A stretch of DNA of 64,000 nt from positions 2,124-66,123 of IMG/VR virus record IMGVR_UViG_3300010218_000003; one strand, 5' to 3'. This DNA comes from a virus. Taxonomy: Duplodnaviria > Heunggongvirae > Uroviricota > Caudoviricetes. The position numbers and the translations under genes are program-made. Shown here piece by piece: positions 11,241-26,732 of this stretch (within the stretch, counting starts at the first letter, position 1; each line of letters begins with the position of its first letter). The notes under the pieces are model-generated. The model ran no database searches, had not been told where the DNA came from, and saw nothing but the letters and a program-made list of their open reading frames with translations.

Positions 11241-11293
11241 GTCGTTCCCTTCGTCGTTGTTAGTACAACATTAACACAGTGCTGATCACTTCG

Positions 11294-11662: not shown

Positions 11663-11822
11663 TGCGCTCCCACTCACCAGCGTAATACCTGTCAAGTGTT
11701 TCAGGGTGTCCATTGCTGTCTACGATGACGAACTTGCCACCCTCAACCTTTGCAACAATTGCCGTACGACCAGTTTCCCGGTGCTTAATCGGCATGTCTC
11801 GCTTTAGCTCACTGTATCTCAT
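11655..11822 (-). CDS. hypothetical small protein (55 aa)
   Basis: manual ORF MRYSELKRDMPIKH...; translationally coupled to deaminase. Confidence 0.4.
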   Translation of the reverse strand: MRYSELKRDMPIKHRETGRTAIVAKVEGGKFVIVDSNGHPETLDRYYAGEWERNG

Positions 11823-11851
11823 CAATTTCCTTTACGAATCTTTGCTCTGCC

Positions 11852-12064
11852 TCATTCAGCGCAATCATCAGTGCCACATTGCTCAGCACTCCGATTGCTA
11901 TCAAGATGGTCAGCAGCAGAACGACCCGTGATCTCATAGATGATTCTTTCTGCATTGCATTGTGGGCAGAGATTCTTGTCATAACCATTATAGGTGCGAA
12001 GGTGGCCGGTTAGCTTATTCCGACCACACTTACACTTACCTAAGTTCCGCTGCCTCGTCCTCAC
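11852..12064 (-). CDS. zinc-finger protein
   Basis: 70 aa; CKC...CPQC. Confidence 0.45.
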   Translation of the reverse strand: MRTRQRNLGKCKCGRNKLTGHLRTYNGYDKNLCPQCNAERIIYEITGRSAADHLDSNRSAEQCGTDDCAE

Positions 12065-12299
12065 TCAATTCCTCAAGGTAGTCAGGATCGTTCTTCAACT
12101 CACCGTACCCGTCAATATCGTACTTGACAAGCAGGTTGAAGTAAGCAGACTCATCTACTGTATCCCAGTCGCCATCTCTGATGGTTCGATACAGCTTCTC
12201 GATGACTTCCTTGCGCTTGTCTTCTGGGACATACTCTAGCATGAGGTCTAGAGGACCGTCAAAGAACTCTGTTCCACCGGCCCATCCCATTACCAGCAC
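12036..12299 (-). CDS. hypothetical protein
   Basis: ORF track 87 aa. Confidence 0.45.
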   Translation of the reverse strand: MLVMGWAGGTEFFDGPLDLMLEYVPEDKRKEVIEKLYRTIRDGDWDTVDESAYFNLLVKYDIDGYGELKNDPDYLEELSEDEAAELR

Positions 12300-12580
12300 A
12301 CCTCAATCAGATACTTGCCAGAAGGAAGAACCTCTCGCTTGACAAGTTCACCAACGATGTTACGTGCGGAAGCGTATCGCATCCCTTCGGCATCTTCGGT
12401 GCCATCTTCACCAAGACCATCAAGATCAGGATGAATCACGTGAGCAGTGTCATTGCTGCATTCCTCCGCAGCAACAAAATCCCATGGGGTGCCGAATTCC
12501 TTTTCGACAAGCTCATTGAGATCGAATGCGTCCATCGTGTAATAGACTTCGCGCTTCGGGTTAAACATTGTCACCACCAA
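12290..12580 (-). CDS. hypothetical acidic protein (paralog of 12571..12954)
   Basis: 96 aa; shared C-terminal GKY.I.V.W motif. Confidence 0.5.
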   Translation of the reverse strand: MVVTMFNPKREVYYTMDAFDLNELVEKEFGTPWDFVAAEECSNDTAHVIHPDLDGLGEDGTEDAEGMRYASARNIVGELVKREVLPSGKYLIEVCW

Positions 12581-12954
12581 ACGATAATGCGGTACTTGCC
12601 CGCAGGAATGTGACCTTCATGACAAAGCCAGTTCAGCATCAGTTCAGCGCCAGGATCAGCATACTCTTCCCGAGGCATTCCCTCAGCCTTGAACTTCTCG
12701 ATCAAAGCCTTGGCCTGATCGTAGGTATGCCCTTCGTCCATCCAAAGAGCGTTTACCTCTTCACCTTCATCATTGAGACCATCGTACACCTCTCCGCCAT
12801 TGACGTCAAAGTCATGGTAGGTGTCCTGAGCAGGGAAGCCCATAGCGGCTCCACCTTCCCACTTCTGGCCGTAAAGATTCCGAATGAACTCTTCCATGTC
12901 GATGTAATGCCACTCAAGACGAGTAACCTCTTCGGGGAGAACGCTATGAATCAC
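12571..12954 (-). CDS. hypothetical acidic protein
   Basis: 127 aa. Confidence 0.5.
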   Translation of the reverse strand: MIHSVLPEEVTRLEWHYIDMEEFIRNLYGQKWEGGAAMGFPAQDTYHDFDVNGGEVYDGLNDEGEEVNALWMDEGHTYDQAKALIEKFKAEGMPREEYADPGAELMLNWLCHEGHIPAGKYRIIVWW

Positions 12955-13157
12955 TTCTTATCCTTTGGTAGATTCGGGTCCTTCATAATCTTGCTTACTT
13001 CTAGAAGTTCCTTCTCGCCGCGCTTTGTTCTTCCCTTGGCATGCAGGAGTAGCGCTAGCAATAGGGCTTCACCAGTGTGGACATTGCCACTCTTGTCATA
13101 CATGTAAGCCCGGTCCATCACACGATTGCCAGGCTTAATCCACTTCTTTTGACTCAT
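12951..13157 (-). CDS. hypothetical protein
   Basis: 68 aa. Confidence 0.45.
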   Translation of the reverse strand: MSQKKWIKPGNRVMDRAYMYDKSGNVHTGEALLLALLLHAKGRTKRGEKELLEVSKIMKDPNLPKDKK

Positions 13158-13272
13158 ATAGTCCCAACTCCTCAGTAATTTCTACAAGGAGACAGGGAGC
13201 ACAGACGCCATCTTCCATGTAGTCGTCTTCACTGTAGTGCGGTCCACAACGAGTGCATACGGTATAGAACAT
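13136..13272 (-). CDS. small zinc-ribbon protein (45 aa)
   Basis: manual ORF MFYTVCTRCGPH...CAPC; TGATG overlap with upstream gene. Confidence 0.35.
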
Positions 13273-13616
13273 CAGCCCTCCGTGTCTTGCTCTGTCTTGT
13301 AAGAATCATACAGGGCTTGAGCGTCCTGTGTCAACCCCTCCTTGTCCATCAAATGACCAATGCCCTTCGCTAGAGCGTTCAGCTTCTCGTTCGTTGCATC
13401 TTCAAAGCGCTGCTGTGTGTTTTGCAGCAATGCAACAAGCAGGAAGGTGATGATAGTTGTCAGGGTATTGATTATTAGCTGCCAGGTGTCAATGTTTCCT
13501 ACTATGAAGAAACTTGGTACCCACAGCAAAACGATAAGAACGCAGGCAGCAAAGAAGGCCGCATGAGAAACCACACGGCCTATCTTGTCTGCGAACTTAT
13601 TGAACCATGCATTCAT
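13272..13616 (-). CDS. membrane protein (start trimmed to MNAWFNK to avoid tRNA)
   Basis: hydrophobic segments; listed ORF 13272..13718 would overlap tRNA-Ser. Confidence 0.5.
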   Translation of the reverse strand: MNAWFNKFADKIGRVVSHAAFFAACVLIVLLWVPSFFIVGNIDTWQLIINTLTTIITFLLVALLQNTQQRFEDATNEKLNALAKGIGHLMDKEGLTQDAQALYDSYKTEQDTEG

Positions 13617-13633
13617 GATTCCAGTATAACACG

Positions 13634-13724
13634 CGGAAGTGACAGGATTCGAACCTGCGGAGCTACTTAATTCGCTCACATCATTAGCAGTGATGCGCCT
13701 TAAACCGGACTCAGCCACACTTCC
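13634..13724 (-). tRNA. tRNA-Ser (anticodon GCT), long variable arm
   Basis: acceptor GGAAGTG/CACTTCC, loop CTGCTAA, T-arm GCAGG-TTCGAAT-CCTGT. Confidence 0.85.
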
Positions 13725-13730
13725 AATGTC

Positions 13731-13958
13731 TCACTTAAGAGACTGACGCAGGCTTTCTTCCATTGATGTAATGAAGGACTGCGTATCCTTTTCCTTATTC
13801 GTGGGCACGAACACCCCACGACGCTCAACAAACTTGCCATTCTTGGTTACGATGATGCCCCAAGTTTTGCCGTCACGACCCATGAAAAGCGGATCTCCGT
13901 CAGCAGACTCAAGTGACCATTCGTAACCACTCGGTGCCTTACCTATTGTATATGCCAT
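13731..13958 (-). CDS. hypothetical protein (start at MAYTIG)
   Basis: ORF track trimmed to avoid tRNA overlap. Confidence 0.45.
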   Translation of the reverse strand: MAYTIGKAPSGYEWSLESADGDPLFMGRDGKTWGIIVTKNGKFVERRGVFVPTNKEKDTQSFITSMEESLRQSLK

Positions 13959-13959
13959 G

Positions 13960-14033
13960 TAGCCCTGATGGGAGTCGAACCCACATTGACGCGGTGTTTG
14001 AGACCGCCGCATATACCATTCTGCTACAGGGCC
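13960..14033 (-). tRNA. tRNA with anticodon CAA (Leu codon UUG) but short variable arm (class I)
   Basis: acceptor GGCCCTG/CAGGGCT, anticodon stem GCGGT/ACCGC, loop CTCAAAC, T-arm GTGGG-TTCGACT-CCCAT, A73. Confidence 0.65.
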
Positions 14034-14054
14034 AGGGCCTTTCGGCCTTACTTC

Positions 14055-14273
14055 TTAGTCATCAATATACTTGAGATCGCTTACGTTGTCAACACAGGCG
14101 TCCTCACCCCAGATCTTGCCAGAAGCAATACACTTCTGAGCAGTCTGACTCTTGAGATAATCACTGTAGTTGACGCTGAATCCGACTGCCGCAAACAATG
14201 CAATGAACACTGATGCGACAATGAGAGCGACCTTTACGTCATTCTTATCCATCACCACTCTCCAGTGGTGCAC
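14055..14273 (-). CDS. membrane protein
   Basis: 72 aa; TM helix. Confidence 0.45.
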   Translation of the reverse strand: MHHWRVVMDKNDVKVALIVASVFIALFAAVGFSVNYSDYLKSQTAQKCIASGKIWGEDACVDNVSDLKYIDD

Positions 14274-14446
14274 ATCTTGTTGATGCGCTCATTCAGTGCA
14301 TCCATTTGCTCAATGGTTGCATTTGGATTCTGTGAAGAAAACCAAATCATTTCCTTTGCTGACTTCTCGATCCACTCATATGGAGCATCAGGGTGAACAA
14401 GGGCGATGCTTGCCGCAGCAATATCAATGAGACTAGGCATTTGCAA
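14252..14446 (-). CDS. hypothetical protein
   Basis: 64 aa. Confidence 0.4.
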   Translation of the reverse strand: MQMPSLIDIAAASIALVHPDAPYEWIEKSAKEMIWFSSQNPNATIEQMDALNERINKMCTTGEW

Positions 14447-14918
14447 TCCAATCTACTCGCTTTTGGTGAACGGCACAAACAAGGACTCTACCTCGCGCCG
14501 GTCGTCGGTAACGTGTTCCAGCCGTATGACCAGTAGGACAAACAGCCTTCCACTTAGGCGTAGCAGGCTTATAGTTTTCACAGGTATTACCCGTGCAACC
14601 AATCTCAATTGCCTTAGCTCGCCAAACTGCATTGTGACCATGCCCCGGCCCAACCAGAGCGTGTGCAATTTCATGTCTGATTACGTTGTCTACCTGAGAC
14701 TCAGTGAGATTCGGAGTGCAGGTCTTTGACAGCTTAATCATCTTCTGAACGTGGTAAGTGGTTCCGTATGTCTTCACCATACGATTCCACCCAAATTCCC
14801 ACCCTCGTGCGAGCAGGCCATAATCCCACATTAGATCGCGCGCAAGGCGCTCGGCTCGAATGAGATTCACTTGAAACCCTTCGGTCGATGGAGTACCCAC
14901 TAAGAGAATTGAACTCAT
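14433..14918 (-). CDS. SprT-like zinc metalloprotease domain protein
   Basis: HEIAH (HExxH) motif; 161 aa. Confidence 0.65.
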   Translation of the reverse strand: MSSILLVGTPSTEGFQVNLIRAERLARDLMWDYGLLARGWEFGWNRMVKTYGTTYHVQKMIKLSKTCTPNLTESQVDNVIRHEIAHALVGPGHGHNAVWRAKAIEIGCTGNTCENYKPATPKWKAVCPTGHTAGTRYRRPARGRVLVCAVHQKRVDWIANA

Positions 14919-14964
14919 GTCTCCTGCGTGTCGAGCAGGCGCTCTACCATTGAGCTAAGCGGGC
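14894..14964 (-). tRNA. degenerate tRNA-like sequence (possible pseudo-tRNA, anticodon region GAC?)
   Basis: D-arm GCTC/GAGC and T-loop TTCAATT but C33 and mismatched T-stem; overlaps SprT start. Confidence 0.25.
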
Positions 14965-14990
14965 TGGAGGAGTGTTGCCACTCCCATTGT

Positions 14991-15212
14991 TTAAACCGTC
15001 AGACGCTTCTTTACGCCGTTGTAGAGAACCTTCCAGTCCTCTTCTGTCTTGACCTGACCTCGTTGCTCTTCAAACAAGGAGATATAGGCTTCGGCAGCCT
15101 TTCGCTGAGCCATATCAGCCTTACGAGCAACAAGCAAAAGCTCGATGACATCAAGAGTCATACTGCCAAGCTTCTTGCCAGTGTCAATGAGCTTCTTAAA
15201 TTCCTGATCCAT
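14991..15212 (-). CDS. hypothetical protein
   Basis: 73 aa. Confidence 0.45.
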   Translation of the reverse strand: MDQEFKKLIDTGKKLGSMTLDVIELLLVARKADMAQRKAAEAYISLFEEQRGQVKTEEDWKVLYNGVKKRLTV

Positions 15213-15334
15213 GTGAACCTTTCAGAGAGTCCATCGTCCGGGTGCCTTTGCCACTCGCATCATTGCCCATACAAAGACACCGAAACCTGCGAGTCCGATT
15301 GAACCGAGAACAATCAGAACTATTACCCACCAGC

Positions 15335-15538
15335 TCATTTAACCTCCCGATTAGGCGGATCGTAGGCCACGATCTTCTTTGTTGGAATCTTTACCCAGTC
15401 ATACTTACCATCAAAATCTAGTGTGACAGATTTTCTGGTAAGCAACACCACTCTACCATACTTGTTTTTGTAGTTTATTGGCCCGATCCAATGATCTTCT
15501 ACAACCATTGCCCAGCCGCCTACTCTTAGATATGCCAC
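15335..15538 (-). CDS. hypothetical protein
   Basis: 67 aa. Confidence 0.45.
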   Translation of the reverse strand: MAYLRVGGWAMVVEDHWIGPINYKNKYGRVVLLTRKSVTLDFDGKYDWVKIPTKKIVAYDPPNREVK

Positions 15539-15539
15539 G

Positions 15540-15621
15540 TACGCCCACCGGGAGTCGAACCCGGACGCTCATTCGAGCCTAGAGTCTCAGTCTAGTGTGT
15601 CTGCCATTCCACCATGGGCGC
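15540..15621 (-). tRNA. tRNA-Leu (anticodon GAG), long variable arm
   Basis: acceptor GCGCCCA/TGGGCGT, loop CTGAGAC, T-arm CCGGG-TTCGACT-CCCGG. Confidence 0.85.
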
Positions 15622-15647
15622 AATGCTCACCGAAGTGAGCCAGGATT

Positions 15648-15782
15648 TTACTCCTGAATTTCTTTCTGTGAAGCATTCACTCGCTTACCGTTGAGCTGTT
15701 CGATAGTGTAGTTAACCTTTCCGAACACCTCACTCTTAGCGATTACCTTGCCAAGCATCTTGGTCTTCTTCACGGTAACCAT
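15648..15782 (-). CDS. small KOW-like protein (44 aa)
   Basis: manual ORF MVTVKKTKMLGKVIAK... Confidence 0.35.
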   Translation of the reverse strand: MVTVKKTKMLGKVIAKSEVFGKVNYTIEQLNGKRVNASQKEIQE

Positions 15783-15792
15783 GTCACCGAGT

Positions 15793-15978
15793 TTAGCCAA
15801 CCTTTTTCACATCCTCTGGGTTACAGTATACATCTCCACCCTCGTTCAAGTCAACAAGCAACTTGCCGTGAGCAGTGACGAATGAAACCTTACCTCTTTT
15901 ACCGTCGAGCTTACCGCGAGTAAACTCGACCCTATCACCCTTTTTATACATCAGTCGAAGGTAAATCCTGTAGAGCAT
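15793..15978 (-). CDS. small KOW-like protein
   Basis: 61 aa; KKGDRVEF..GK.GKV motif. Confidence 0.5.
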   Translation of the reverse strand: MLYRIYLRLMYKKGDRVEFTRGKLDGKRGKVSFVTAHGKLLVDLNEGGDVYCNPEDVKKVG

Positions 15979-16349
15979 TCCTTGATGATGCGGTCTTCCA
16001 GCTCTTGGAGCTGCTTACCAGTCAGATAACTCTTCGGACGCTTGTCCGTGATCTGGCCATTGTAGTAGTAATAGATTTGATTGGCGCGAGTTCCGTGCTT
16101 GGTGTACGGAATCTTGTTGATTCGCGTCTTCTTGACAAACACGTACTCCATATACACGTATCCATCTGGATTGGTGCCGATATAATGTGACTTATACCTG
16201 TCAGCAATCTCCATGCGTACGTAATATGGAGTGTTTAGCTTGCACCGATTGCATGCCCACCGAAGTGCTTCAACTTCAAGCTTGCGACCGGCGCGTGAAG
16301 TGGCGCTAAGCGGATTACCAACGCCACTAAGGAAGTTCATGATTCCCAT
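15951..16349 (-). CDS. hypothetical protein
   Basis: 132 aa. Confidence 0.5.
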   Translation of the reverse strand: MGIMNFLSGVGNPLSATSRAGRKLEVEALRWACNRCKLNTPYYVRMEIADRYKSHYIGTNPDGYVYMEYVFVKKTRINKIPYTKHGTRANQIYYYYNGQITDKRPKSYLTGKQLQELEDRIIKECSTGFTFD

Positions 16350-16353
16350 TTAA

Positions 16354-16728
16354 TCAGTCCTCGTCAAAGAGTTCCTGGCCGTCCTTGACACAAACCCACT
16401 CGTTGTCGTGGCTCTTGTGACTCTTGGAATGGCCCTTCTTGTTCTTCTTAGACTTCTTGTCCTTGTTCTTGCCACCGCCGAAAAGGCTTCCGAGACCAGA
16501 AGACTTCTTACCAGACTTCTTAGACTTTGAAGGCTTTGACTTTCCAGCAACAAAAGCCATCGGAGCCATGCTCAGATCTTCGAAGTCATCCTCTCGCATG
16601 ACCTTGCCGTGAGCCTTGTCACACCGGCTCTGGAAGTCAGAAGGAGCAGTGTCCTTACAACCAACCAGACCGAAGGCAAGACCCCCGACGACAACGGATG
16701 AGACAGCGATGTTAGTCAGCTTGTTCAT
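16354..16728 (-). CDS. lipoprotein with Lys-rich tail
   Basis: signal peptide + lipobox LVGC. Confidence 0.55.
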   Translation of the reverse strand: MNKLTNIAVSSVVVGGLAFGLVGCKDTAPSDFQSRCDKAHGKVMREDDFEDLSMAPMAFVAGKSKPSKSKKSGKKSSGLGSLFGGGKNKDKKSKKNKKGHSKSHKSHDNEWVCVKDGQELFDED

Positions 16729-16769
16729 TTCGACCCTTCGTCGTTGTTGTTGGTACTACTCTATCGTGC

Positions 16770-17003
16770 TCAGTCTGTGCTGTCAAGGTACTCGAACTCG
16801 GGACCATCAAGGTACCGAGGGAACATGTGCTCCCTGACGTACTTCTCAAGATACACGTTCAGCCAAGCTTGCGCAAGAGCTTCGCTCTTAAAGCCAGACT
16901 TAATAGTCTCTTGACCGTTGTACATAACGCCGATGACTCGCCACTCTGTCATGCTTGCGCGCCATGCGACGATGTTTGCAAACTTTTCTGGATTGGGCAA
17001 CAT
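16770..17003 (-). CDS. hypothetical protein
   Basis: 77 aa. Confidence 0.45.
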   Translation of the reverse strand: MLPNPEKFANIVAWRASMTEWRVIGVMYNGQETIKSGFKSEALAQAWLNVYLEKYVREHMFPRYLDGPEFEYLDSTD

Positions 17004-17191
17004 CAGTTCACCGTCACTTGAATGTCAGATCCTACTACGATCCACCAGAGCCATATCCATCCAGCAGACCATGCCAATGCAATTATTCTTTGCACCGGGG
17101 TCATCTCTGCCGGGATAAAATTTATTGCAATTCCCATGAGCGCCAGCCAGCCAAACAACAGCGTGACTGTGATCATTCCTATGATTTCCAT
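17003..17191 (-). CDS. small membrane protein
   Basis: 62 aa, two TM. Confidence 0.45.
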   Translation of the reverse strand: MEIIGMITVTLLFGWLALMGIAINFIPAEMTPVQRIIALAWSAGWIWLWWIVVGSDIQVTVN

Positions 17192-17202
17192 ACTTCTCCA
17201 AA

Positions 17203-17231
17203 CAGAAGAAGGGGGCCGAAGCCCCCTTCTA
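17203..17231 (-). terminator. hairpin terminator after PNKP gene
   Basis: GAAGGGGGC-CGAA-GCCCCCTTC followed by T-rich run on minus strand. Confidence 0.5.
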
Positions 17232-18122
17232 TCAGAAGTTTCCGGGTGCTACCTGGAAACAGTCTATGCCCATCGCACGCCACATGTCAACAACCTGCTG
17301 ACGATCATCGTACACAGCCACAACATCGTAGATGCCACGAATGTGCTCATCGAACAGCTCTTGCTTGACGATGGAATCCTTGCGCATGTCCCCCTCAGAA
17401 CGCATGTGCAATTCTGAGAAAGGAATGTCGTACAGCTCCAGCCAAGCGATTGTTTCATTACGACATGAGCCGTCTCGTCCGCTCATAACGATGATCTTGT
17501 ATCCTGCCTTCGCGTGAGCCTGGGCAGTCAGAACAACCTGTCGTCGCGGATCATCGTCGCCAACACCCTTCCAGTAGAAAGGATCACGCTCATTCATCTC
17601 AGCAAGGGTTCCGTCGATGTCAAAGAGGTAAACCTTCTCTGCACCTTCGGGACGCTCGTAAGGATGAACAGCCGTGACACTCGTGTGGAAATCAGTGAAG
17701 ATTCCACTAGACTTCATGGACTGATGCATCTTACGAATGACAGACTCAGGGACGTCTCGACCACCGAGCGCAGCACGCACAGTGTTTCGCTGAATTGCCG
17801 TCTCTAGAGAAACGTCAAACTGCTTAACTGAAACACTAGCTCCGTGACGCTGGCCGATCTTAACGAATTCCTTGATGTACTTGTGTCGGATGTTCGTGTC
17901 ATCTACGACCACGGAGTAGCCCTTTGACAGAGCGCCATCGACCATTCCGTGCTCAATTCGAGTAACAAGCTCCTCGTCTACTCCGGTCTCCCGGCCAAAG
18001 AGCTGCATACGAATGTCGTCACGATTGACTCGAACACCATTCGGGTTTTCCTTGAGCCAAACATCATGCGCCCAAGTGCTCTTACCACAACCGGGAATTC
18101 CCCGGAGAATCAGAAGCTGCAT
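17232..18122 (-). CDS. pnkp: polynucleotide 5'-kinase/3'-phosphatase (T4 Pnk-like)
   Basis: N-terminal P-loop GIPGCGKST; C-terminal HAD phosphatase DIDGTLAE. Confidence 0.85.
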   Translation of the reverse strand: MQLLILRGIPGCGKSTWAHDVWLKENPNGVRVNRDDIRMQLFGRETGVDEELVTRIEHGMVDGALSKGYSVVVDDTNIRHKYIKEFVKIGQRHGASVSVKQFDVSLETAIQRNTVRAALGGRDVPESVIRKMHQSMKSSGIFTDFHTSVTAVHPYERPEGAEKVYLFDIDGTLAEMNERDPFYWKGVGDDDPRRQVVLTAQAHAKAGYKIIVMSGRDGSCRNETIAWLELYDIPFSELHMRSEGDMRKDSIVKQELFDEHIRGIYDVVAVYDDRQQVVDMWRAMGIDCFQVAPGNF

Positions 18123-18307
18123 TACTTGCCTTTCTGTTCCTTCTTGTAAGCTCGTCGGTTCTTCCAGTCTTCGATAAGACCCATCTTAGGCGGTCCGTCG
18201 ATGTCTGTCAACCCCTCGACCAAGCCCCATAGTAGAGCGAAGCAGCCGATCAAGAAACCTAGCACCAGACCGGCCACTACACCTATTCCAATTCCTATCC
18301 AGATCAT
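18122..18307 (-). CDS. small membrane protein
   Basis: 61 aa. Confidence 0.45.
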   Translation of the reverse strand: MIWIGIGIGVVAGLVLGFLIGCFALLWGLVEGLTDIDGPPKMGLIEDWKNRRAYKKEQKGK

Positions 18308-18388
18308 TACTTACCTTGGTTGTTTGGATGCCATGGACATGTAGGCTGATGATTGGGGAACGGAGTTCCACAATCCATGCAGAGGAAA

Positions 18389-18670
18389 TCACTCACCTAG
18401 CATCGCCTCAAATCTGTCTTGGCAAGACTGGCATAGACCTGAAATCTTATACTCTCGCTTTGACAGCTCGTCTCGGAAATCATTCTCTGAAACTGACTGT
18501 CCGCATCCTATTGGAAGTCCAGCAAGACTTACACACTTACCCTTGGCAACTGCTGCTTGCGCCTTCTTTCGCGCCTCGTTCATCCGATCCAGAATCCTAG
18601 AACAAAGAACACTACGGCATAAATAACTGGATGCTTTGCAACAAACTCTGTCACTCTGCTCCTTCACCAA
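18389..18670 (-). CDS. hypothetical Cys-rich protein
   Basis: 93 aa. Confidence 0.4.
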   Translation of the reverse strand: MVKEQSDRVCCKASSYLCRSVLCSRILDRMNEARKKAQAAVAKGKCVSLAGLPIGCGQSVSENDFRDELSKREYKISGLCQSCQDRFEAMLGE

Positions 18671-18944
18671 ATGCGGCCATATTGCCGATTAGGGTTTCTG
18701 TAGGATTGTTGTAGTGATTATACTTACGCCGGGCCGTTTCGATATCAGCAGCAAAACTCATGGCTCGATATCCATTGGCAGCGTTTGGAATTTCTTCCTT
18801 AGTCTCCTGAATCATTCGGAGACTTCTCTGTGCACGTTCAAGATCTTCTGTCATCATCAGGTACAGCCGGGCACGCTTCTTACAAAGGTGCCCGGCCAAT
18901 GACCTACGACGAGGATCTTTACGCCACTCCTCGTTAGCCTGCAT
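18651..18944 (-). CDS. hypothetical protein
   Basis: 97 aa. Confidence 0.45.
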   Translation of the reverse strand: MQANEEWRKDPRRRSLAGHLCKKRARLYLMMTEDLERAQRSLRMIQETKEEIPNAANGYRAMSFAADIETARRKYNHYNNPTETLIGNMAAFGEGAE

Positions 18945-20028
18945 TGGTAGGGTGTACGTCCTCTCGCTTGGCCTCCGGCTTGATCTGCTTCCAGATTAGC
19001 TCACTGATGCTGTCCCCGTCAAGCAGGTTGAACATGTGGCTTCTGTACAGATCGATTCGGTTTGCAGCCATAGCGAAGTCACGACGACCCTCACGAGTAG
19101 CAGGATCGAAGCCCTCGGGCATTGAAGAAAGAAGGTTGTGGAAGATCCCACGCACCTCAATCTCAATTCGCTCGTACTCCTCCAGAAGCTTCCCACCAAC
19201 ATCCTTCACAAAACTATGGAACTCGTCAGGCAGAGCCTCACAAATCTCCAAGATTGTGTAACCTTCGGTGAGCTGCTTCCATACAGAGCGCTCAGACAGC
19301 ATAGAGATCATGCGGTGCAGCTCGACGTAATCTGCCTGCTTGATCTTAACCATCTTGTTGCCAGATCGAACTACGAAACCCTCTGCGTTCTTACGGTACT
19401 GCGCGTGTGCAGCCTCACGCAATGACTTGTAATTGAAAACCTCCGTCACCGGCCCGTCCCAATTAACAATTGCCTGAGACTCCAGAGGGCCACAGACGTA
19501 CCCATGCTCCTTGTGAACTGCACCCAAGAGAATAAGGTCATCCATTGAACCGTAGTCCAGAACGATCCTGTTCTCAGGGTAAACAATCTCAAAGATGAAT
19601 GTGTAGTCTGAGACGAACTGAATGTGGCTGTAACGCTCGTTAAGAACACGAGTTGCGTGAATCGCCTGATCTGACATGAATGAACCGCGAGTCGCAATCG
19701 CCAACTGACCACCGTAGGAGTACAGGACTCCCATTGATCCATCCTTCTTGTCCGTAACCTCAACCGGAGCATCCCAGTCAAGCTGTGCAGACTGAGAGTC
19801 ACCCAAATTGAAGAACTTCATGAAAGGACGAGCAATCAGGTTGCCATCAAAGTCAACGATTGTACCGCGACAGTTAAGAGTGCACTCGTTCCACTTTCCA
19901 GCGAACTGAGTCTTCTCTGAGTAGTTAAGAATCTTTAGGGGCAGGACCGGATGAGTTTGCGCCCGGACATAGCCCTCTGAGATCATCTCGTCAAGAAGCT
20001 CCTGTGAGAAGATCTTGGTGAACTGCAT
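18934..20028 (-). CDS. RNA ligase, T4 Rnl1-like (tRNA repair)
   Basis: CRGTIVDFDG...ARPFMKFFNL and KKDGS motif I match T4 gp63/Rnl1 N-terminal region. Confidence 0.85.
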   Translation of the reverse strand: MQFTKIFSQELLDEMISEGYVRAQTHPVLPLKILNYSEKTQFAGKWNECTLNCRGTIVDFDGNLIARPFMKFFNLGDSQSAQLDWDAPVEVTDKKDGSMGVLYSYGGQLAIATRGSFMSDQAIHATRVLNERYSHIQFVSDYTFIFEIVYPENRIVLDYGSMDDLILLGAVHKEHGYVCGPLESQAIVNWDGPVTEVFNYKSLREAAHAQYRKNAEGFVVRSGNKMVKIKQADYVELHRMISMLSERSVWKQLTEGYTILEICEALPDEFHSFVKDVGGKLLEEYERIEIEVRGIFHNLLSSMPEGFDPATREGRRDFAMAANRIDLYRSHMFNLLDGDSISELIWKQIKPEAKREDVHPTNAG

Positions 20029-20040
20029 CGGTCCTCCAAA

Positions 20041-20256
20041 TTACATGTTGTTAATTGCGTTGGTCGCTTCCTTAATTGAAAGGAAGTCATGAGAGCTGAT
20101 CTGAATCTTACCATCAGTCTCTCTGATCAGTCGAGAATACCCATATGCATCTCGCCAGATCTCAATGTCATTGATGGTGTTTACCCGAACTGCTTTCTTC
20201 TTCTTGAAGTATTCCACAGCTTCGGGAGCTGCGTCAAGCCAGTACCACATCATCAC
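20041..20256 (-). CDS. hypothetical protein
   Basis: 71 aa. Confidence 0.45.
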   Translation of the reverse strand: MMMWYWLDAAPEAVEYFKKKKAVRVNTINDIEIWRDAYGYSRLIRETDGKIQISSHDFLSIKEATNAINNM

Positions 20257-20513
20257 AATCCCAATCGATTAGCAAGGCGCTGACTCTTCATCCCGCCTCG
20301 CGGACCATTGATCCATACAGAAGCAAAATCGGCCGGAACAAGAGTTCTGCCGATGCGCTTCTCAACGTGCTCAATACAGAGCATACCCTTGTGCCCAAGT
20401 CCTGTCAAGGACCAGACCTCGTTGATCAGAAAGAAGTGTTCGCCAATCTTGCCAGTGTCAATACCACAGTCAAGACAGAGCCACTTGCTTCGGCTGTTCT
20501 TGTTACCGGCCAA
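20253..20513 (-). CDS. zinc-binding protein
   Basis: 86 aa; CLDC...C.EH. Confidence 0.45.
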   Translation of the reverse strand: MAGNKNSRSKWLCLDCGIDTGKIGEHFFLINEVWSLTGLGHKGMLCIEHVEKRIGRTLVPADFASVWINGPRGGMKSQRLANRLGL

Positions 20514-20515
20514 TT

Positions 20516-20701
20516 TTATCCACTCACCTTGATGACAAAGATCTTCAATGGAAGATCAGGATTGTCGGCCTTTGCTCGTTCCAGATATGGAACCAGAGTC
20601 TTATGATCAGGCCAGAATGGTTGGTTAGTGTACTTGCCTGTGTAGCAGTTTTTGATAGCTTCTGCTTGGTCACAGGCAATCGCGTACATCTTGAGTTGCA
20701 T
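20516..20701 (-). CDS. hypothetical protein
   Basis: 61 aa. Confidence 0.4.
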   Translation of the reverse strand: MQLKMYAIACDQAEAIKNCYTGKYTNQPFWPDHKTLVPYLERAKADNPDLPLKIFVIKVSG

Positions 20702-20997
20702 CAGTTACCCCAGTTGTAGTCGTCCTCCCACTTTCGCTCAACGAAGTCGAAGTCGTCTCGAACAATGGGGAAGTAGAATTCCTTGCTGCACTTGAGACAC
20801 TTGTAACCGTGACGCCAGGTGTACTTGTTGTACAGAGCGAGAGTGTGCTTACGACCCTCCTTGCCCTTGCACCACTTACGAGTGTTCTTCTTCTTAGCCT
20901 TGCCAACCTTGTCACGCTCGACAAAGTTACGAGCGCTGCGACGAGTCGCCTTGCTCATGTTCCACTTGTCGGTGCCGCGTTCCTTGATGGTAGCCAT
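20701..20997 (-). CDS. hypothetical basic protein
   Basis: 98 aa. Confidence 0.45.
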   Translation of the reverse strand: MATIKERGTDKWNMSKATRRSARNFVERDKVGKAKKKNTRKWCKGKEGRKHTLALYNKYTWRHGYKCLKCSKEFYFPIVRDDFDFVERKWEDDYNWGN

Positions 20998-21048
20998 ACA
21001 TCACATCCTAGTTGTAGTGTAGCAGCTTGTCAAGCTACTTAACCAGGG

Positions 21049-21258
21049 TCATACTTCTGACAACTCAATGTCGATTTCAACTCCGTAGATGATATATGCA
21101 CCCTTGAACATGATGTTGTACTCTTCTGCACTTTCAAGGGTTTCCCACAGCTTAGCCTCAAACGGGTCACCAGTCAAGTACGGGTAGCCACCGGAAGCCT
21201 TGTCAAGAGCAACGAACTTGCCCTGATCCCTGTCCTGGAGAATAAATCCGTGCTTCAT
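21049..21258 (-). CDS. hypothetical protein
   Basis: 69 aa. Confidence 0.45.
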   Translation of the reverse strand: MKHGFILQDRDQGKFVALDKASGGYPYLTGDPFEAKLWETLESAEEYNIMFKGAYIIYGVEIDIELSEV

Positions 21259-21268
21259 TTTGTGCCTC

Positions 21269-21613
21269 TCATTTGAAGTTCTTGCCGGACCAAGGAAGCT
21301 TCAACCCATCTCCTCGACGCCGGGGCACTACGTGCATGTGCAGATGAAAGACGCTTTGAGTAGCAATCTTCCCAGCGGAGGTAATGAGGTTTGATTCCTC
21401 GTTGATGGTACTAGCATAGTATGAAGCGGCTGCTGCTGTCAAGCCAGTTACAGTTGGATCTTCACGGTAGTCCATCACATGCACCTTTGGGACAATTAGA
21501 GTATGTCCAGGCGTCACCGGCTCCAGAGGCTTAAAAGCAATTACGTGTTCCCACTCCTGAACCATTTGGACAGGTGCTTCGCCTCGTACGATCTTGCAGA
21601 AAATGCAATCCAT
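21269..21613 (-). CDS. HIT (histidine triad) family protein
   Basis: HLHMHVVP histidine-triad motif. Confidence 0.8.
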   Translation of the reverse strand: MDCIFCKIVRGEAPVQMVQEWEHVIAFKPLEPVTPGHTLIVPKVHVMDYREDPTVTGLTAAAASYYASTINEESNLITSAGKIATQSVFHLHMHVVPRRRGDGLKLPWSGKNFK

Positions 21614-21630
21614 TGTGATCCTTAATTGGG

Positions 21631-21680
21631 TGCCAGGGGCAGGAATCGAACCTGCAACCTTTCTTCTCTGTCATCCTAGC
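21631..21680 (-). ncRNA. minimal tRNA-like element / tRNA fragment (T-arm + acceptor only)
   Basis: GCAGG-TTCGATT-CCTGC T-arm, CCCTGGC-A 3' end; no D/anticodon arms. Confidence 0.3.
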
Positions 21681-21810
21681 AGCGCTACTAAGAGGTGTCA
21701 AGACATCGTGCACAATGAGATGACACTATAGAGGAGACTGTTATTACCAAATAACTTCCCCGGCATGCGACAGCCAGCTTAACATTACATCAAGCTGGCT
21801 GTCAAGGTGT

Positions 21811-22251
21811 TTAGCCTTCTACTACTGGACCAGATGGCTCATCTGGTGTTGGCTCGCTTGGCTGCTCTGGCTGCGCGATAGAGTTTAGACGTGCAGTTTC
21901 TGCACTGATCTCATCGGCTGCACTTGATGCATTAGCTAGAGCGGCATCTGTGGCCGCCTGAGCGTCCGCTAGAGCCTGGTTCTGAGCAACGTCCTCAGCA
22001 TCTTCTGCTGCTGCAAGGTCTGCTGCTGCCTGACGCTCTGTTGCTAGGGCATCCTGTGCCTCTCTAACGGCATCCGTAAGTGGTCCAACAAGTGCGTCGA
22101 CACGTGCACTGACACCGCTTACTGCCTCACGGAGGTTTGCAACCTCTGCTGTTAGGTCTGCCATTTGTTCCTCCAATCCCTGCTGGCCTACTCGGATTTC
22201 CGTCAGAAGGTCAGAGAGATATTGGTAGCCCAAATGTTCTACAAAATCCAT
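21811..22251 (-). CDS. Ala-rich coiled-coil protein
   Basis: 146 aa. Confidence 0.5.
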   Translation of the reverse strand: MDFVEHLGYQYLSDLLTEIRVGQQGLEEQMADLTAEVANLREAVSGVSARVDALVGPLTDAVREAQDALATERQAAADLAAAEDAEDVAQNQALADAQAATDAALANASSAADEISAETARLNSIAQPEQPSEPTPDEPSGPVVEG

Positions 22252-22328
22252 ATTTCAATCCTCCTGCCTCTGATGAATTAGGCAGTATCAGTATATCAGG
22301 AGGATTGTTATGAAGTCTAATTGACTTG

Positions 22329-22398
22329 CTGTCACAGTTGGATTCGAACCAACAACATCCTTGGCCTAGGATTGCTTTGCCAATTAAGCTACGTGACA
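22329..22398 (-). tRNA. tRNA-like with non-standard 6-nt anticodon loop (AGGCCA)
   Basis: acceptor TGTCACG/TGTGACA, D-arm GCTT/AAGC, perfect ATCCT/AGGAT stem, T-arm GTTGG-TTCGAAT-CCAAC. Confidence 0.5.
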
Positions 22399-22407
22399 TA
22401 GGGCCTT

Positions 22408-22653
22408 TCAGCCCGTTACGATTTCAAGGTAGAGTCTATTGAACATCTGCTTGAATTGGTTATCACTACATGTACCGTCTAGACCGTCAATTGCTTCCAT
22501 CACCGCCGCGCGTTTTGTGTCCTCTAGAACGAGCCTAGCAACACCGTGACGAAGGCGGAAATAGAATGGCTCCCCGTTGTACAGGAAGCCATCTACAATT
22601 ACCGGACAGGCGTAGCAGGAGTAATCCCAACTCTTGACAACCCTGTCAAACAT
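22408..22653 (-). CDS. hypothetical protein
   Basis: 81 aa. Confidence 0.45.
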   Translation of the reverse strand: MFDRVVKSWDYSCYACPVIVDGFLYNGEPFYFRLRHGVARLVLEDTKRAAVMEAIDGLDGTCSDNQFKQMFNRLYLEIVTG

Positions 22654-22659
22654 CTTACC

Positions 22660-22878
22660 TCACTTAGAGAAGCGCTCCTTAGCGAACGTCTCGAAGTCCT
22701 TCTTGGTGCCAGTGAAGTCCTCGAAGTTACGCTTTGAGCCGTGGACTCGGTAGTTGGTCTTACGACCGACCTTGCTGGTCTCAACGAGACCCTTCCAAAC
22801 ACCAGCGACGTAAAGGTTGAAGAAGTTGTCACGGTCGGTGGAACGAAGCTCAAGAGCCTTGACACGCTTAGCCATTTT
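22660..22878 (-). CDS. hypothetical basic protein (start at MAKRVK)
   Basis: trimmed to avoid overlap. Confidence 0.4.
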   Translation of the reverse strand, partial: KMAKRVKALELRSTDRDNFFNLYVAGVWKGLVETSKVGRKTNYRVHGSKRNFEDFTGTKKDFETFAKERFSK

Positions 22879-22885
22879 GGGCCTT

Positions 22886-23290
22886 TCAGTAAAGTGAATG
22901 AGAAGCACGGACAGTAATCTTGTCTTCGTGCTTGCGGAAGAATGCACGACTCTTTGGGTCATGCGGCATAACTACAGGGCTTGGAGCAAACTTCCTGACG
23001 TGGAAGATCAGACGGCTTCCATAGCCCATGTTCCTGAACTTCACCCTAGTGTAATACTGAGTGATGAAGTTGTCACCAGAGTTGTTTGGATATGCGAGAC
23101 ACCAAGCAATAAGCATCTCTGTCTCAGCGTCTTTGATCATTACCACTCGGGCCTGCTTTGGAAAAGCCTTCTTTGCCCAGGGAAGATCATACATCATACA
23201 GCCATCGTAGCGGAAGTTCAGAGACTTACACTGACTGTACTCTTTTTGTGTGAGATTACGCACCAGCTTGGTAACTGTTTTGGTACGCAT
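22886..23290 (-). CDS. possible GNAT acetyltransferase
   Basis: 134 aa; GYGSRL-like motif. Confidence 0.4.
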   Translation of the reverse strand: MRTKTVTKLVRNLTQKEYSQCKSLNFRYDGCMMYDLPWAKKAFPKQARVVMIKDAETEMLIAWCLAYPNNSGDNFITQYYTRVKFRNMGYGSRLIFHVRKFAPSPVVMPHDPKSRAFFRKHEDKITVRASHSLY

Positions 23291-23341
23291 GTTAGTCCTT
23301 ACGTTGCTCGATCTTGCGGATGGTGTCCATCCACTTCTTCA

Positions 23342-23566
23342 TCAGGCTATCATAGTCCAGAGCCATGTGGCAAGCTCCCAGAGTCCATAAGCTGCACCGC
23401 CAAAAGCGGCAATTACAATCAGAAGCGGAAGAAATACACATCCGCCAACTACAATTCCCTTGGCAAGCGGACCTTCGTCACCGTAGCCGTTCTCAAAAGC
23501 TGAACCAACTCGGTATCCTAGGGACACGTCCTTGCGCGTTGCGGGAAGTCTCATCCAGTTCGGCAT
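23342..23566 (-). CDS. small membrane protein
   Basis: 74 aa. Confidence 0.45.
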   Translation of the reverse strand: MPNWMRLPATRKDVSLGYRVGSAFENGYGDEGPLAKGIVVGGCVFLPLLIVIAAFGGAAYGLWELATWLWTMIA

Positions 23567-23575
23567 GTTTACATC

Positions 23576-23890
23576 CTAGTACCAGTTGGGAGCGTTGTCA
23601 ACAACCATTTGCTCAAGCCAGTCGGGTAGATCAGGGCGAAGATAACTGTGAATAGAAACAGACTCTCGCTGCTTCATTCCAGCCTTCATTCTGTAACCTG
23701 ACACACTTACAGTGTAGTGAGGTCCAGGGTTCTTGTCAAGACCAACTGCAACGATTCCATAGGTGTAGCTGATCTGGACCCTAGTAACCTTGAGAGTCAC
23801 AGGACCAGTCTTCATACGCTTCTGGATCGTTCGAGCGTCTTGCTCTGTCAGTTGGAAGTCTACCATAGTAGACCGCGCTGTCAACCTCAT
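23576..23890 (-). CDS. hypothetical protein (start trimmed)
   Basis: ORF 23576..23965 trimmed to MRLTARS. Confidence 0.4.
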   Translation of the reverse strand: MRLTARSTMVDFQLTEQDARTIQKRMKTGPVTLKVTRVQISYTYGIVAVGLDKNPGPHYTVSVSGYRMKAGMKQRESVSIHSYLRPDLPDWLEQMVVDNAPNWY

Positions 23891-23903
23891 GTTGATCCTT
23901 AAG

Positions 23904-23945
23904 TGGAGATGGCGGGAGTCGAACCCGCGTCCTGATGCTTCAAAC
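23904..23945 (-). ncRNA. tRNA 3'-fragment-like element (T-arm + acceptor 3' strand)
   Basis: GCGGG-TTCGACT-CCCGC then CATCTCC-A; no 5' partner found. Confidence 0.25.
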
Positions 23946-24201
23946 AGTAGTCTATACACAGCCATGTGTCAAGCAGGTAAAGCATGTGTTTATCCCCACC
24001 GGGCCAAACATTCGCAACTTTCTGTTCCTAGGCAGTTGCCGCCCGGCCATCACGCCGCTAGGGCGTAGGCAGATGCAACGTTAGAGTTGGCATTTATAGG
24101 TTTGAGGCTTTTTAAAGACATCTCCTCAATGTCTGGCTGCAAACTAAAGTCATCCACCCCAGTCGAAACCAAGGCATCCCCTAGGCCCCGAAGGGCTGTT
24201 C

Positions 24202-24402
24202 TTACTTTCCGTGCTCTGTCTTGACGTGAGTATTCATTAGACCATGAACACGGACGTGCTCTTTGTCCCACTGCTTCTCTGTGTAGCACCTCTTGCTGAC
24301 AATCATATGTCCGCAAACTCGGCAGTGCACTGAGAAGTCACCAGGCCACTTCTCAATAGCCTTCTCAAAAGCCCTGTCTATGAGACCCATATCACTTCCC
24401 AT
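24202..24402 (-). CDS. zinc-finger protein
   Basis: 66 aa; C..C...H..H. Confidence 0.45.
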   Translation of the reverse strand: MGSDMGLIDRAFEKAIEKWPGDFSVHCRVCGHMIVSKRCYTEKQWDKEHVRVHGLMNTHVKTEHGK

Positions 24403-24787
24403 ACTTCGTTAGGAAGTTCTGAAATGATGTTACTACAAGAGGCTCCGGTGTGTCAAGACTTCCATCGTACTCAGGATACAGACTCATAGTCTGATCATGG
24501 AGGTCTGCTACCCAAAGCTTATGCTCATTGTCACCAATGAAGTTGAAGGTTAGTCCTCCACCTAGCTCTGATTCAGCCTCCATACCACCGGCTTCCATGA
24601 GACTCTGGACAAAGATTCTCTGTCCATATGCATTATCATCCCATCGCCCCTTGGCGTTGTCAAGAGACTTTGCGATTGATGCAGTGATACCAGGGAAACC
24701 CCAATGTGAGTAAACCCACAGAATCCCAAGCTTCTCATTGTCATGATAGTCACGCATCATCACGCCAACATTGGTACGATCGCCCAT
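24392..24787 (-). CDS. hypothetical protein
   Basis: 131 aa. Confidence 0.5.
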   Translation of the reverse strand: MGDRTNVGVMMRDYHDNEKLGILWVYSHWGFPGITASIAKSLDNAKGRWDDNAYGQRIFVQSLMEAGGMEAESELGGGLTFNFIGDNEHKLWVADLHDQTMSLYPEYDGSLDTPEPLVVTSFQNFLTKYGK

Positions 24788-24790
24788 TGT

Positions 24791-25348
24791 TTACCTTTCG
24801 CCGTAAGCGTCTAGATAGTTATATGCTACTTGATTCCACAGTGCATCCGCAAGGGCATTGTGCTCACTGCCTTCTTGCTCAGGCAGTGGAGGTCTTCCCT
24901 CGTTATGCCAACGCTGCTTGATGTCCATCGTATACATTGGCATGCCATCTGGCAAGTCAATCATGCGGCCAAAGAGTTGGCTCACAACTACGTGGTCATA
25001 GGCTCCATAGTATGCCCACAGCTCTGGCTTGTCAAACTCATGTGCCTCGTCGTAGTCCAGCACAAAATCTCTCCACAATCCAGCAATCGCTTCGTTGGGC
25101 AGAACCCTAGCGTAGTCAGGATGCTGAGTGTCCCAGGAGAGGCTTCCAGTGCCGTTCTGCTTAACTGGCAAATGACTGATGACGTTCTCCCTCAGCCACT
25201 TATTTTCATTTGCTCTATTGAGCACGTATAGGTTGTTGGTGATCAAGTACAGCCGTTCACCATCTTCTCTCACTGCGCCTAGACTGATGAACCTAACAGG
25301 CTCCTCCGGTCCAGTCTCATAGAACTCAGTGTCGTAAAAGATCTTCAA
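24791..25348 (-). CDS. DEDDh 3'-5' exonuclease (DnaQ/RNase T-like)
   Basis: Exo I YDTEF and Exo III HNALADA motifs. Confidence 0.7.
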   Translation of the reverse strand: MKIFYDTEFYETGPEEPVRFISLGAVREDGERLYLITNNLYVLNRANENKWLRENVISHLPVKQNGTGSLSWDTQHPDYARVLPNEAIAGLWRDFVLDYDEAHEFDKPELWAYYGAYDHVVVSQLFGRMIDLPDGMPMYTMDIKQRWHNEGRPPLPEQEGSEHNALADALWNQVAYNYLDAYGER

Positions 25349-25495
25349 TCTTGTTCCTCATCTTTCCAGACTCCACACCTACGGCATTGATCACCATAGT
25401 AGAAGTCATGTTGTTTATATTCTCTTCCGTGGAAGATGCAAGGAGTCTTTGTTGTCTTTCCTCCCTCTGTCTCCCACCGCTCTATTTCACACATG

Positions 25496-25885
25496 TTAAA
25501 TCACCTTCGCCACGCTGCGATTGTGAGTCCTAAATGCATGACAGTTAGCACAGACAACCTCACACTTGGCGATCTCCTTTTCTAGATCTGCCCACGCGCC
25601 ACCCTTGGCGCGATGTGCGATATTGAATTCCTTGTCTCCAAGGTGGTCAAAGTGCATCACGTAATACGGATACTGAATGCCACAATCAGCACAAGGCTTT
25701 TCCTTCGCCGCCCGAACTCTGTCTCTGATTTGCTCGCTATGCTTGCGAGCCTTGTCCTTGTAATACTGCTTGTTCTTCTGGTAATGCTCTCTCGTATATG
25801 CATTGTGGCACGGCTTGCATCGAGAACTTCTCTTTGGAAATGATTCAATCGCAAGCTCATTCTTGCATTCGCTACATGTCTTCAT
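25496..25885 (-). CDS. HNH endonuclease
   Basis: HFDH...N...CANCH motif. Confidence 0.8.
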   Translation of the reverse strand: MKTCSECKNELAIESFPKRSSRCKPCHNAYTREHYQKNKQYYKDKARKHSEQIRDRVRAAKEKPCADCGIQYPYYVMHFDHLGDKEFNIAHRAKGGAWADLEKEIAKCEVVCANCHAFRTHNRSVAKVI

Positions 25886-25938
25886 AACATAATAATATCC
25901 CCTACGAAGTTATTTTACAACTTCGTAGGGGATTACTG

Positions 25939-26011
25939 TCTCTCTACCCAGACTCGAACTGAGAATTCTACTTTCGTAGAGTAGCGGTTTATCCAATTAG
26001 CCTATAGAGAG
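25939..26011 (-). tRNA. tRNA-Arg (anticodon ACG)
   Basis: acceptor CTCTCTA/TAGAGAG, stem CTACT/AGTAG, loop CTACGAA. Confidence 0.8.
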
Positions 26012-26731: not shown

Positions 26732-26732
26732 C

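Follow-up and report, generated by a model that had tools for sequence, protein, structure and literature searches.

Does a phage that carries dozens of its own transfer RNA (tRNA) genes also carry the means to mend tRNAs that have been cut? The question is raised by two neighbouring genes in the 64,000-nucleotide stretch of viral DNA analysed here, which is referred to as the window (positions 2,124 to 66,123 of IMG/VR record IMGVR_UViG_3300010218_000003). The two genes are the following:

17232..18122, minus strand: predicted T4-type polynucleotide 5'-kinase / 3'-phosphatase (Pnkp), 296 aa (Pfam, PDB sequence match, PHROG, residue map)
18934..20028, minus strand: predicted Rnl1-type ATP-dependent RNA ligase, 364 aa (Pfam, PDB match, PHROG, Foldseek, residue map)

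The answer favoured here, with a probability of roughly three in four, is that the two genes would constitute a T4-style RNA heal-and-seal pathway, encoded in one operon of a cluster-BE-like Streptomyces phage. A first-pass annotation, made from the nucleotide sequence, had read the locus as a T4-like pair of Pnk and Rnl1, and full-length homology, catalytic residues, T4 gene order and recurring linkage all agree with that reading.

The kinase-phosphatase frame had been recognized by its P-loop and its DxDGT motif. Both are present (GIPGCGKST at residues 8-16 and FDIDGT at residues 167-172), and the coordinates and the minus-strand orientation given for the frame are exact. The two domains are resolved by Pfam as AAA_33, a P-loop kinase profile, on residues 3-137 (E 2e-25) and HAD_PNKP on residues 163-296 (E 5e-51), the latter aligned over profile positions 2-143 of 143. 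Among solved structures, the best sequence match is Pnkp1 of Capnocytophaga (4xrp), which is full length at E 1e-45; T4 PNK (1ltq) follows at E 3e-42, with residues 3-296 aligned on 4-301 of 1ltq, and the phosphatase part also matches the structure of the T4 phosphatase domain (5uj0, E 5e-27). The identity to T4 PseT (NC_000866) is 33% over 313 columns, and a single family, phrog_505 (E 3e-102 for the window protein), spans both proteins end to end. All mapped catalytic residues are kept. The kinase residues K15, S16, D35, R38 and R126 of T4 correspond to K14, S15, D35, R38 and R116, and the phosphatase residues D165, D167, R176, R213, D254, D277 and D278 of T4 correspond to D168, D170, R179, R216, D249, D272 and D273. 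A P-loop kinase lacking a phosphatase domain, which would have spoken against the first-pass annotation, is therefore not what this frame encodes, as a collinear HAD phosphatase domain with all the T4 catalytic residues is present. The protein is classed as a member of the T4-type Pnkp family, every feature that is testable in silico being in agreement.

The ligase frame had been picked out by motifs shared with T4 Rnl1. Here too CRGTIVDFDGNLIARPFMKFFNL and DKKDGS are both found and the coordinates are exact, again on the minus strand. Pfam assigns RNA_lig_T4_1 (E 3e-16; 60.3 bits against a gathering score of 28.3). The only solved structures matched in sequence are three entries of T4 Rnl1 (E 8e-15, about 1e-14 for all three, residues 49-258). 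The family phrog_562 covers ligase residues 4-356 (E 1.5e-82) and includes T4 Rnl1, over residues 1-374. An AlphaFold model, built from an input of 39 homologs, reached a predicted local distance difference test score (pLDDT) of 91, and Foldseek placed T4 Rnl1 at the top of its matches (E 4e-17, 379 aligned columns), followed by fungal Trl1, archaeal Rnl3, Naegleria Rnl5 and T4 Rnl2. DNA ligases appear only at E values of at least 4e-4. A placement among DNA ligases, the other outcome that would have counted against the earlier reading, is thus contradicted by sequence and fold, since T4 Rnl1 comes first in both and DNA ligases lie far lower.

At the level of single residues, motifs I, III, IV and V are retained, as K99, D101, G102, E159, E227, G228, K240 and K242 of T4 Rnl1 correspond to K94, D96, G97, E147, E216, G217, K228 and K230. 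In the N-terminal subdomain, R54, K75 and F76/F77, which contact ATP in T4 Rnl1 (PMC6379707), correspond to R54, K71 and F72/F73. The mapped nucleotidyl-transfer residues, and with them R54, K71 and F73, are invariant in the 39-homolog alignment. The only one that differs from T4 is K119, which is replaced conservatively by R114, an arginine that is itself invariant in the family alignment. The adenylylated lysine is predicted to be K94, within the motif I sequence K94-K-D96-G97.

The linkage of the two genes is apparent from the layout of the locus, which is given here in the direction of transcription:

20380..20408, minus strand: sigma-70-type promoter candidate (TTGACA-17-TATGCT), located upstream of the ligase gene, a consensus match only
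18651..18944, minus strand: open reading frame (ORF) of 97 aa, overlapping the ligase stop by 11 nt, with no Pfam or PHROG match, kept only in close relatives
18389..18670, minus strand: 93-aa CxxC-containing ORF of phrog_19722, kept only in BE-like loci
18122..18307, minus strand: 61-aa predicted membrane ORF, whose TAA stop overlaps the Pnkp ATG (TAATG)
17207..17230, minus strand: intrinsic-terminator-like hairpin of 10 bp, 7 of them GC, with a T-rich tail, beginning 2 nt past the Pnkp stop

The ligase gene has a Shine-Dalgarno sequence, GGAGGA, 5 nt upstream of its ATG. The ligase and 97-aa frames overlap, as do the 97-aa and 93-aa frames; an 81-nt gap precedes the 61-aa ORF, and the TAATG junction suggests that this ORF and Pnkp are translationally coupled. 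The hairpin likely marks the end of the transcription unit. Because the frames overlap or abut, share a stop-start junction and are followed by a strong terminator directly after Pnkp, the ligase and Pnkp genes appear to form one transcription unit. An Rfam match to istR at 17205-17349, which overlaps the terminator hairpin, scored 27 bits against a cutoff of 45 and was taken as chance. As a separate observation, 13 sigma-70-like promoter matches were found between 16300 and 22500 where 4.9 are expected, nearly all of them on the minus strand; seven of the matches have a perfect TTGACA -35 element and a spacing of 17-18 nt. This excess points to numerous short transcription units, transcribed with the housekeeping sigma factor of the host.

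The same arrangement is known from T4 (NC_000866), where rnlA, alc, pseT.3, pseT.2, pseT.1 and pseT follow each other on one strand; in the window the order is likewise ligase, small ORFs, Pnkp. It also recurs widely. In 80 IMG/VR loci with ligase homologs at 34-91% identity, a Pnkp homolog lies within 8 kb of the ligase in 39, on the same strand in every one of them. In 35 it lies downstream, and the gap is often below 60 nt. The intervening small ORFs are probably not core components, because they are kept only among close relatives.

The window is assigned to a cluster-BE-like Streptomyces phage. A nucleotide search with positions 17000-20300 matched 86 Streptomyces phage records, at about 86-88% identity for the best-covered, and an "RNA ligase" and a "polynucleotide kinase" are annotated under the match in each of the 20 best listed of these 86. 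The picture of the relatives is unchanged with a 24-kb query. The best-matching record is phage Spilled (Karimacvirus, Stanwilliamsviridae), and several of the matching phages, CeilingFan and Riptide among them, are placed in actinobacteriophage cluster BE in the literature. Phages of BE1 have been described as siphoviruses of about 130 kb with about 50% GC, 43-48 tRNAs and one transfer-messenger RNA (tmRNA) (PMC5764925). The window is identical to no record searched, and the closest ligase proteins are a JGI metagenome protein (90% identity) and that of phage Wofford (86%). Upstream of the pair, at 21269-21613 on the minus strand, the window carries a HIT-family (HinT-like) gene that is not found in Spilled, the closest full-length relative. 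Just upstream of this gene (21631-21680, minus strand) lie 50 nt that look like a remnant of a tRNA, namely its 3' half with T arm and acceptor strand; the Rfam score of 21 bits is below threshold, and a promoter-like site, TTGACA-17-TAGGAT, overlaps this remnant.

The pair lies inside a long array of tRNA genes:

6667..50130, minus strand: tRNA island with 43 tRNA genes and a tmRNA (23901-24181), small ORFs interspersed, the repair pair inside (ARAGORN, Rfam)

ARAGORN finds 41 tRNAs and the tmRNA, all on the minus strand as is the repair pair. Rfam adds two genes that ARAGORN missed, both also on the minus strand: tRNA-Phe(GAA) at 34999-35070 (44 bits) and tRNA-Tyr(GUA) at 27523-27594 (35.5 bits, 72 nt, with an atypical D arm). 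The array of about 40 genes announced by the first-pass annotation is thus borne out by a total of 43, which serve all 20 amino acids. At least eight tRNA genes lie within 8 kb of the ligase in 24 of 60 ligase loci scanned, a set of loci that are not phylogenetically independent. As homologous ligase loci are associated with tRNA arrays, a tRNA-related role of the repair pair gains support. Diverse viral contigs (IMG/VR loci L002-L079) carry Rnl1-type ligases of 35-68% identity, often in tRNA arrays and in several cases with a tmRNA. One tRNA of the island (22328-22398, minus strand) is unusual in its 6-nt anticodon loop, for which ARAGORN reports a 2-nt "anticodon", gc, and Rfam 43.7 bits; ARAGORN makes this call in the BE-like loci L004 and L005 too, and the gene is annotated in Spilled as tRNA-OTHER (Ala|Gly).

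The proposed pathway would begin when a metal-independent ribonuclease cuts RNA, most likely in the anticodon loop of a tRNA, leaving 2',3'-cyclic-phosphate and 5'-OH ends. The HAD domain of Pnkp (nucleophile D168 in D168-x-D170-G-T) would remove the 3' or cyclic phosphate, and a phosphate would be added to the 5'-OH by the P-loop kinase domain (K14, S15, D35, R38, R116). The ligase, having adenylylated itself on K94, would pass the AMP on to the 5'-phosphate and seal the break. In this way the phage would probably keep its tRNA pool usable while tRNA in the infected cell is under attack from a nuclease of a host defence or toxin system. For T4, the repair mechanism and its role against PrrC are well established (PMC3025547; PMC10264068). 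From these parallels we infer enzymatic activity of the two proteins, tRNA as their substrate and the existence of a host nuclease. The first-pass annotation had described that nuclease as of PrrC or RloC type. The PrrC part of this wording stands and the RloC part does not, as RloC excises the wobble nucleotide and thereby pre-empts the heal-and-seal route (PMC3710099); nucleases of PrrC type, or other tRNases that form cyclic phosphates, would be the better description. A comparable role has been advanced for Microbacterium phages of cluster ED, whose RNA ligase and PNK pair was proposed to act against RNA-cleaving host defences (PMC7302621). The Pnkp enzymes of mycobacteriophages Omega and Cjw1 were characterised by Zhu, Yin and Shuman 2004, as far as the citation of that work in PMC3025547 indicates.

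Several caveats attach to this interpretation. The ligase scores 83.9 bits with TIGR02308 (NCBIfam "T4 RnlA family RNA ligase"), aligned over residues 45-335, where the equivalog cutoff is 242.25; it is hence classed in the Rnl1 family as a diverged subfamily, and not as an NCBI "equivalog". The weakest likeness is in the C-terminal domain. It is by their appended domains that clades of RNA ligases are told apart, and the C-domain of T4 Rnl1 confers anticodon-loop specificity (PMC6379707). In the window ligase the domain corresponding to this tRNA-specificity module is strongly diverged and weakly similar to that of T4: an hhalign alignment of the ligase family profile with T4 Rnl1 ends at residue 258, a profile of the C-domain only aligns over 25 residues of T4 Rnl1, and Foldseek with a model of the C-domain only (pLDDT 90) returned no match. 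The family hidden Markov models phrog_562 and TIGR02308 do extend through the C-domain of the ligase. Because of this divergence the substrate range is left open, and the substrate specificity of the ligase cannot be taken over from T4. The physiological role of the pair is put forward by analogy with T4. We know of no target anticodon nuclease in Streptomyces, and literature searches found neither a Streptomyces PrrC or RloC nor an anticodon nuclease of another kind.

A further caveat comes from the codons. Codon usage over 82 minus-strand ORFs gives a G+C content at third positions (GC3) of 50%, the window as a whole having 48% GC, and the phage-preferred codons (including GCT, GGT, GTT, ACT and CGT) end in A or T. 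Such A/T-ending codons are rare in high-GC Streptomyces. Codon compensation may be an alternative explanation for the tRNA array; the GC content of BE phages is about 20 percentage points below that of their hosts, and the BE1 announcement names both codon compensation and anti-tRNase protection as explanations for the arrays (PMC5764925). The four tRNA-Lys genes (three CUU, one UUU) were considered as replacements for the target of a PrrC-type nuclease. This idea was dropped, because 93% of the phage's own Lys codons are AAG even though GC3 is 50%; such demand explains the copies, and the tRNA-Lys(CUU) triplicate is not diagnostic. A separate observation concerns leucine, as TTA makes up 3% of Leu codons and the phage has a tRNA-Leu(UAA) at 45023-45097. 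The host tRNA that reads TTA in Streptomyces, bldA, is under developmental control, and the phage tRNA could release the phage from bldA dependence.

The alternative that survives best is that the pair is not anticodon-specific and serves a broad RNA-damage and quality-control island, repairing tRNA, tmRNA, ribosomal RNA and messenger RNA beside Ro60, a Y-like RNA, an RNase-AS-like 3' exonuclease and an RlaP-like nucleotidyltransferase. The function of such an island would correspond to that of the rsr-yrlBA-rtcBA RNA repair operon of bacteria, with 5'-phosphate ligase chemistry as the difference. We regard it as an unlikely, though reasoned, account of the locus. Two further features of the tRNA island bear on it:

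39611..41239, minus strand: Ro60/Rsr ortholog with TROVE and vWA domains (Pfam vWA_Ro60 3e-60, TROVE 4e-34)
35210..35318, minus strand: conserved non-coding RNA, tRNA-like but lacking an anticodon loop, a candidate for a Y-RNA-like partner of Ro60 (Rfam, alignment)

The Ro60/Rsr ortholog matches NCBIfam Rsr over its full length with 457 bits, under the 900-bit cutoff, and is annotated in phage Spilled as "Ro-like RNA binding protein". The tRNA-like RNA, 109 nt long and encoded on the same strand, lies 4.3 kb downstream of the Ro60 gene. Its D and T arms are canonical and its acceptor stem has 6 bp, and about 58 nt stand where 22 would be expected: in place of the anticodon arm there is a long irregular arm, in which the strands GCGAAAUGC..UGYCGAA and AGUAGAUAWCAGAGUAGC are conserved and which ends in a hairpin of variable length and sequence. 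In an alignment of 14 phages, whose orthologs were taken one by one from the phage collection, 322 of 322 pair cells are standard and compensatory changes occur in six pairs, whereas slid controls give 31-61% pairing. The element is kept in 83 BE phages and is unannotated in 37 of 40 listed records, the annotated exceptions including Mildred21 (as tRNA-Tyr) and Bmoc (where a small coding sequence is laid over it). A scan of viral contigs with an exact pattern found Mildred21 only.

The invariant G(U/C)CGAA of this RNA matches the GNCGAAN0-1G motif of YrlA Y RNAs. This motif is the proposed site of Rsr binding on the YrlA RNAs of bacteria and phages, tRNA mimics whose genes lie no more than about 4 kb from that of Ro60, on the same strand (PMC4201824). 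YrlA RNAs are permuted, whereas the window RNA is not, as it ends at the acceptor stem. No match to an Rfam Y-RNA family was found within 3 kb of the Ro60 gene, nor on the element itself. The RNA is put forward as a candidate non-permuted Y RNA and putative partner of Ro60. This hypothesis may prove the more useful lead, since a tRNA-like RNA near a phage Ro60 is a testable candidate for a new Y-RNA architecture.

Several other genes of the island are of note. A 173-aa protein (47580-48101, minus strand) matches Pfam RlaP ("RNA repair pathway DNA polymerase beta family") at 23.4 bits against a cutoff of 23. By tblastn, RlaP-like homologs abut Rnl1 and Pnkp, between or beside them, on two unrelated viral contigs (L026:~3686 and L031:~7435), which hints at a third repair component. 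Adjoining the tmRNA (24791-25348, minus strand) is a homolog of RNase AS, a polyadenylate-specific 3'-exoribonuclease (Rv2179c-like), with an NCBIfam score of 130 bits against a cutoff of 200. In related phages it bears the label of a "DnaQ-like" DNA exonuclease or polymerase subunit, perhaps wrongly. Two more vWA proteins, one TerF-like and one generic, are encoded inside the tRNA island (28211-29005 and 50238-50858, both minus strand).

A quality-control role of the pair thus draws on the presence of Ro60/Rsr, the RNase AS-like gene, the weak RlaP match and the GNCGAA-bearing tRNA-like RNA in one tRNA island, on the substrate range left open by the diverged ligase C-domain, and on the Salmonella precedent of an operon combining Ro60, Y RNA and a ligase (PMC4201824; PMC7790460). 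What tells against it is the distance of 5-28 kb between these genes and the pair, whose operon does not include them, so that neighbourhood is all that associates them, and also that the RlaP match stands at its threshold. A specific form of the idea, in which the pair would be one arm of an integrated damage-response island where Ro60 and the tRNA-shaped Y-like RNA (35210-35318) would sense or triage damaged tRNAs for repair by Pnkp and Rnl1, is quite doubtful. If true, it would make the island a viral counterpart of the bacterial rsr-yrlA-rtcBA operon, built on the other ligation chemistry.

The pair could also be thought to mature the phage's own RNAs instead of repairing damage, for instance by joining fragments with Trl1-like splicing chemistry after a protein has excised an intervening sequence from an unusual tRNA-like transcript. 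The ligase shares its chemistry with fungal Trl1, its second-best structural relative, and the island does hold odd tRNA-like genes, namely the 109-nt element with about 37 extra nt and the tRNA with a 6-nt anticodon loop. As an intron-containing tRNA spliced by the pair, the 109-nt element was rejected: the ARAGORN intron calls disagree between orthologs (Cys with 15 nt, Phe with 20 nt), removal of the variable hairpin gives no canonical anticodon arm, the real tRNA-Tyr lies elsewhere, at 27523-27594, and the flanking blocks are kept as motifs of a structured arm. Moreover, no splicing endonuclease was found among the window ORFs scanned, and T4 employs the same enzymes without such a role. 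RNA maturation is very improbable on these grounds.

T4 Pnkp acts on DNA ends in vitro too, T4 gp63 has a second activity in tail-fibre attachment, and RefSeq and PHROGs transfer the latter name to genes of the window type. A non-RNA role, with Pnkp healing DNA ends and the ligase serving as a virion assembly factor, nevertheless has only the slightest of chances: both genes are sited in the tRNA island, away from the structural genes, the siphoviruses of cluster BE lack long tail fibres of the T4 type (PMC5764925), and the invariance of the ligase catalytic residues over 39 homologs argues for selection on catalysis.

The heal-and-seal reading is accordingly a correct finding, but one already known, and its novelty is low because the BE orthologs are annotated and the anti-tRNase idea has been published. 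With this pair, T4-style heal-and-seal repair of tRNA is confirmed as a conserved trait of large Streptomyces phages. The frequent position of Rnl1-type ligases within phage tRNA arrays supports the published idea that arrays and repair enzymes together answer host defences that target tRNA. The significance would be greater if the Streptomyces nuclease that is the target were found, or if the diverged C-domain of the ligase were to specify a different RNA substrate.

Among known systems, fungal and plant Trl1 (Rnl6 clade) resembles the window ligase in structure (8rbj, 6n0t) and in its heal-and-seal chemistry; it differs in that one polypeptide carries all three functions, in its requirement for a 2'-phosphate and in a C-domain peculiar to Trl1 (PMC6379707). 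The Pnkp1-Rnl-Hen1 system of Capnocytophaga gingivalis (4xrp/4xru), also of the heal-and-seal type (PMC4411300), supplies the best structure match to the window Pnkp. The window ligase, in contrast, matches T4 Rnl1, the 4xrp/4xru chains falling outside the top 50 fold matches, and a Hen1 2'-O-methyltransferase domain was not found by Pfam on 30 window ORFs, a set that includes part of the small ORFs. The Pnkp enzymes of Omega and Cjw1 and the cluster ED pair, compared by description, are likewise T4-type end-healing enzymes of actinobacteriophages, in phages without an island of 40-plus tRNAs. A much closer likeness is found in the cluster BE orthologs (LukeCage, Wofford, Spilled, StarPlatinum), which share 86-88% nucleotide identity over the locus, synteny and the tRNA/tmRNA island, with ligases 86-91% identical and Pnkp up to 97% identical to the window proteins. 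The model system remains T4 PseT with Rnl1 (gp63/RnlA), which has in common with the window a two-domain Pnkp with all catalytic residues, an Rnl1-type adenylyltransferase domain including the counterparts of R54, K75 and F77, similar protein lengths (Pnkp 296 aa in the window and 301 aa in T4; ligase 364 and 374 aa), and an unchanged gene order on one strand, where a few small ORFs separate the two genes.

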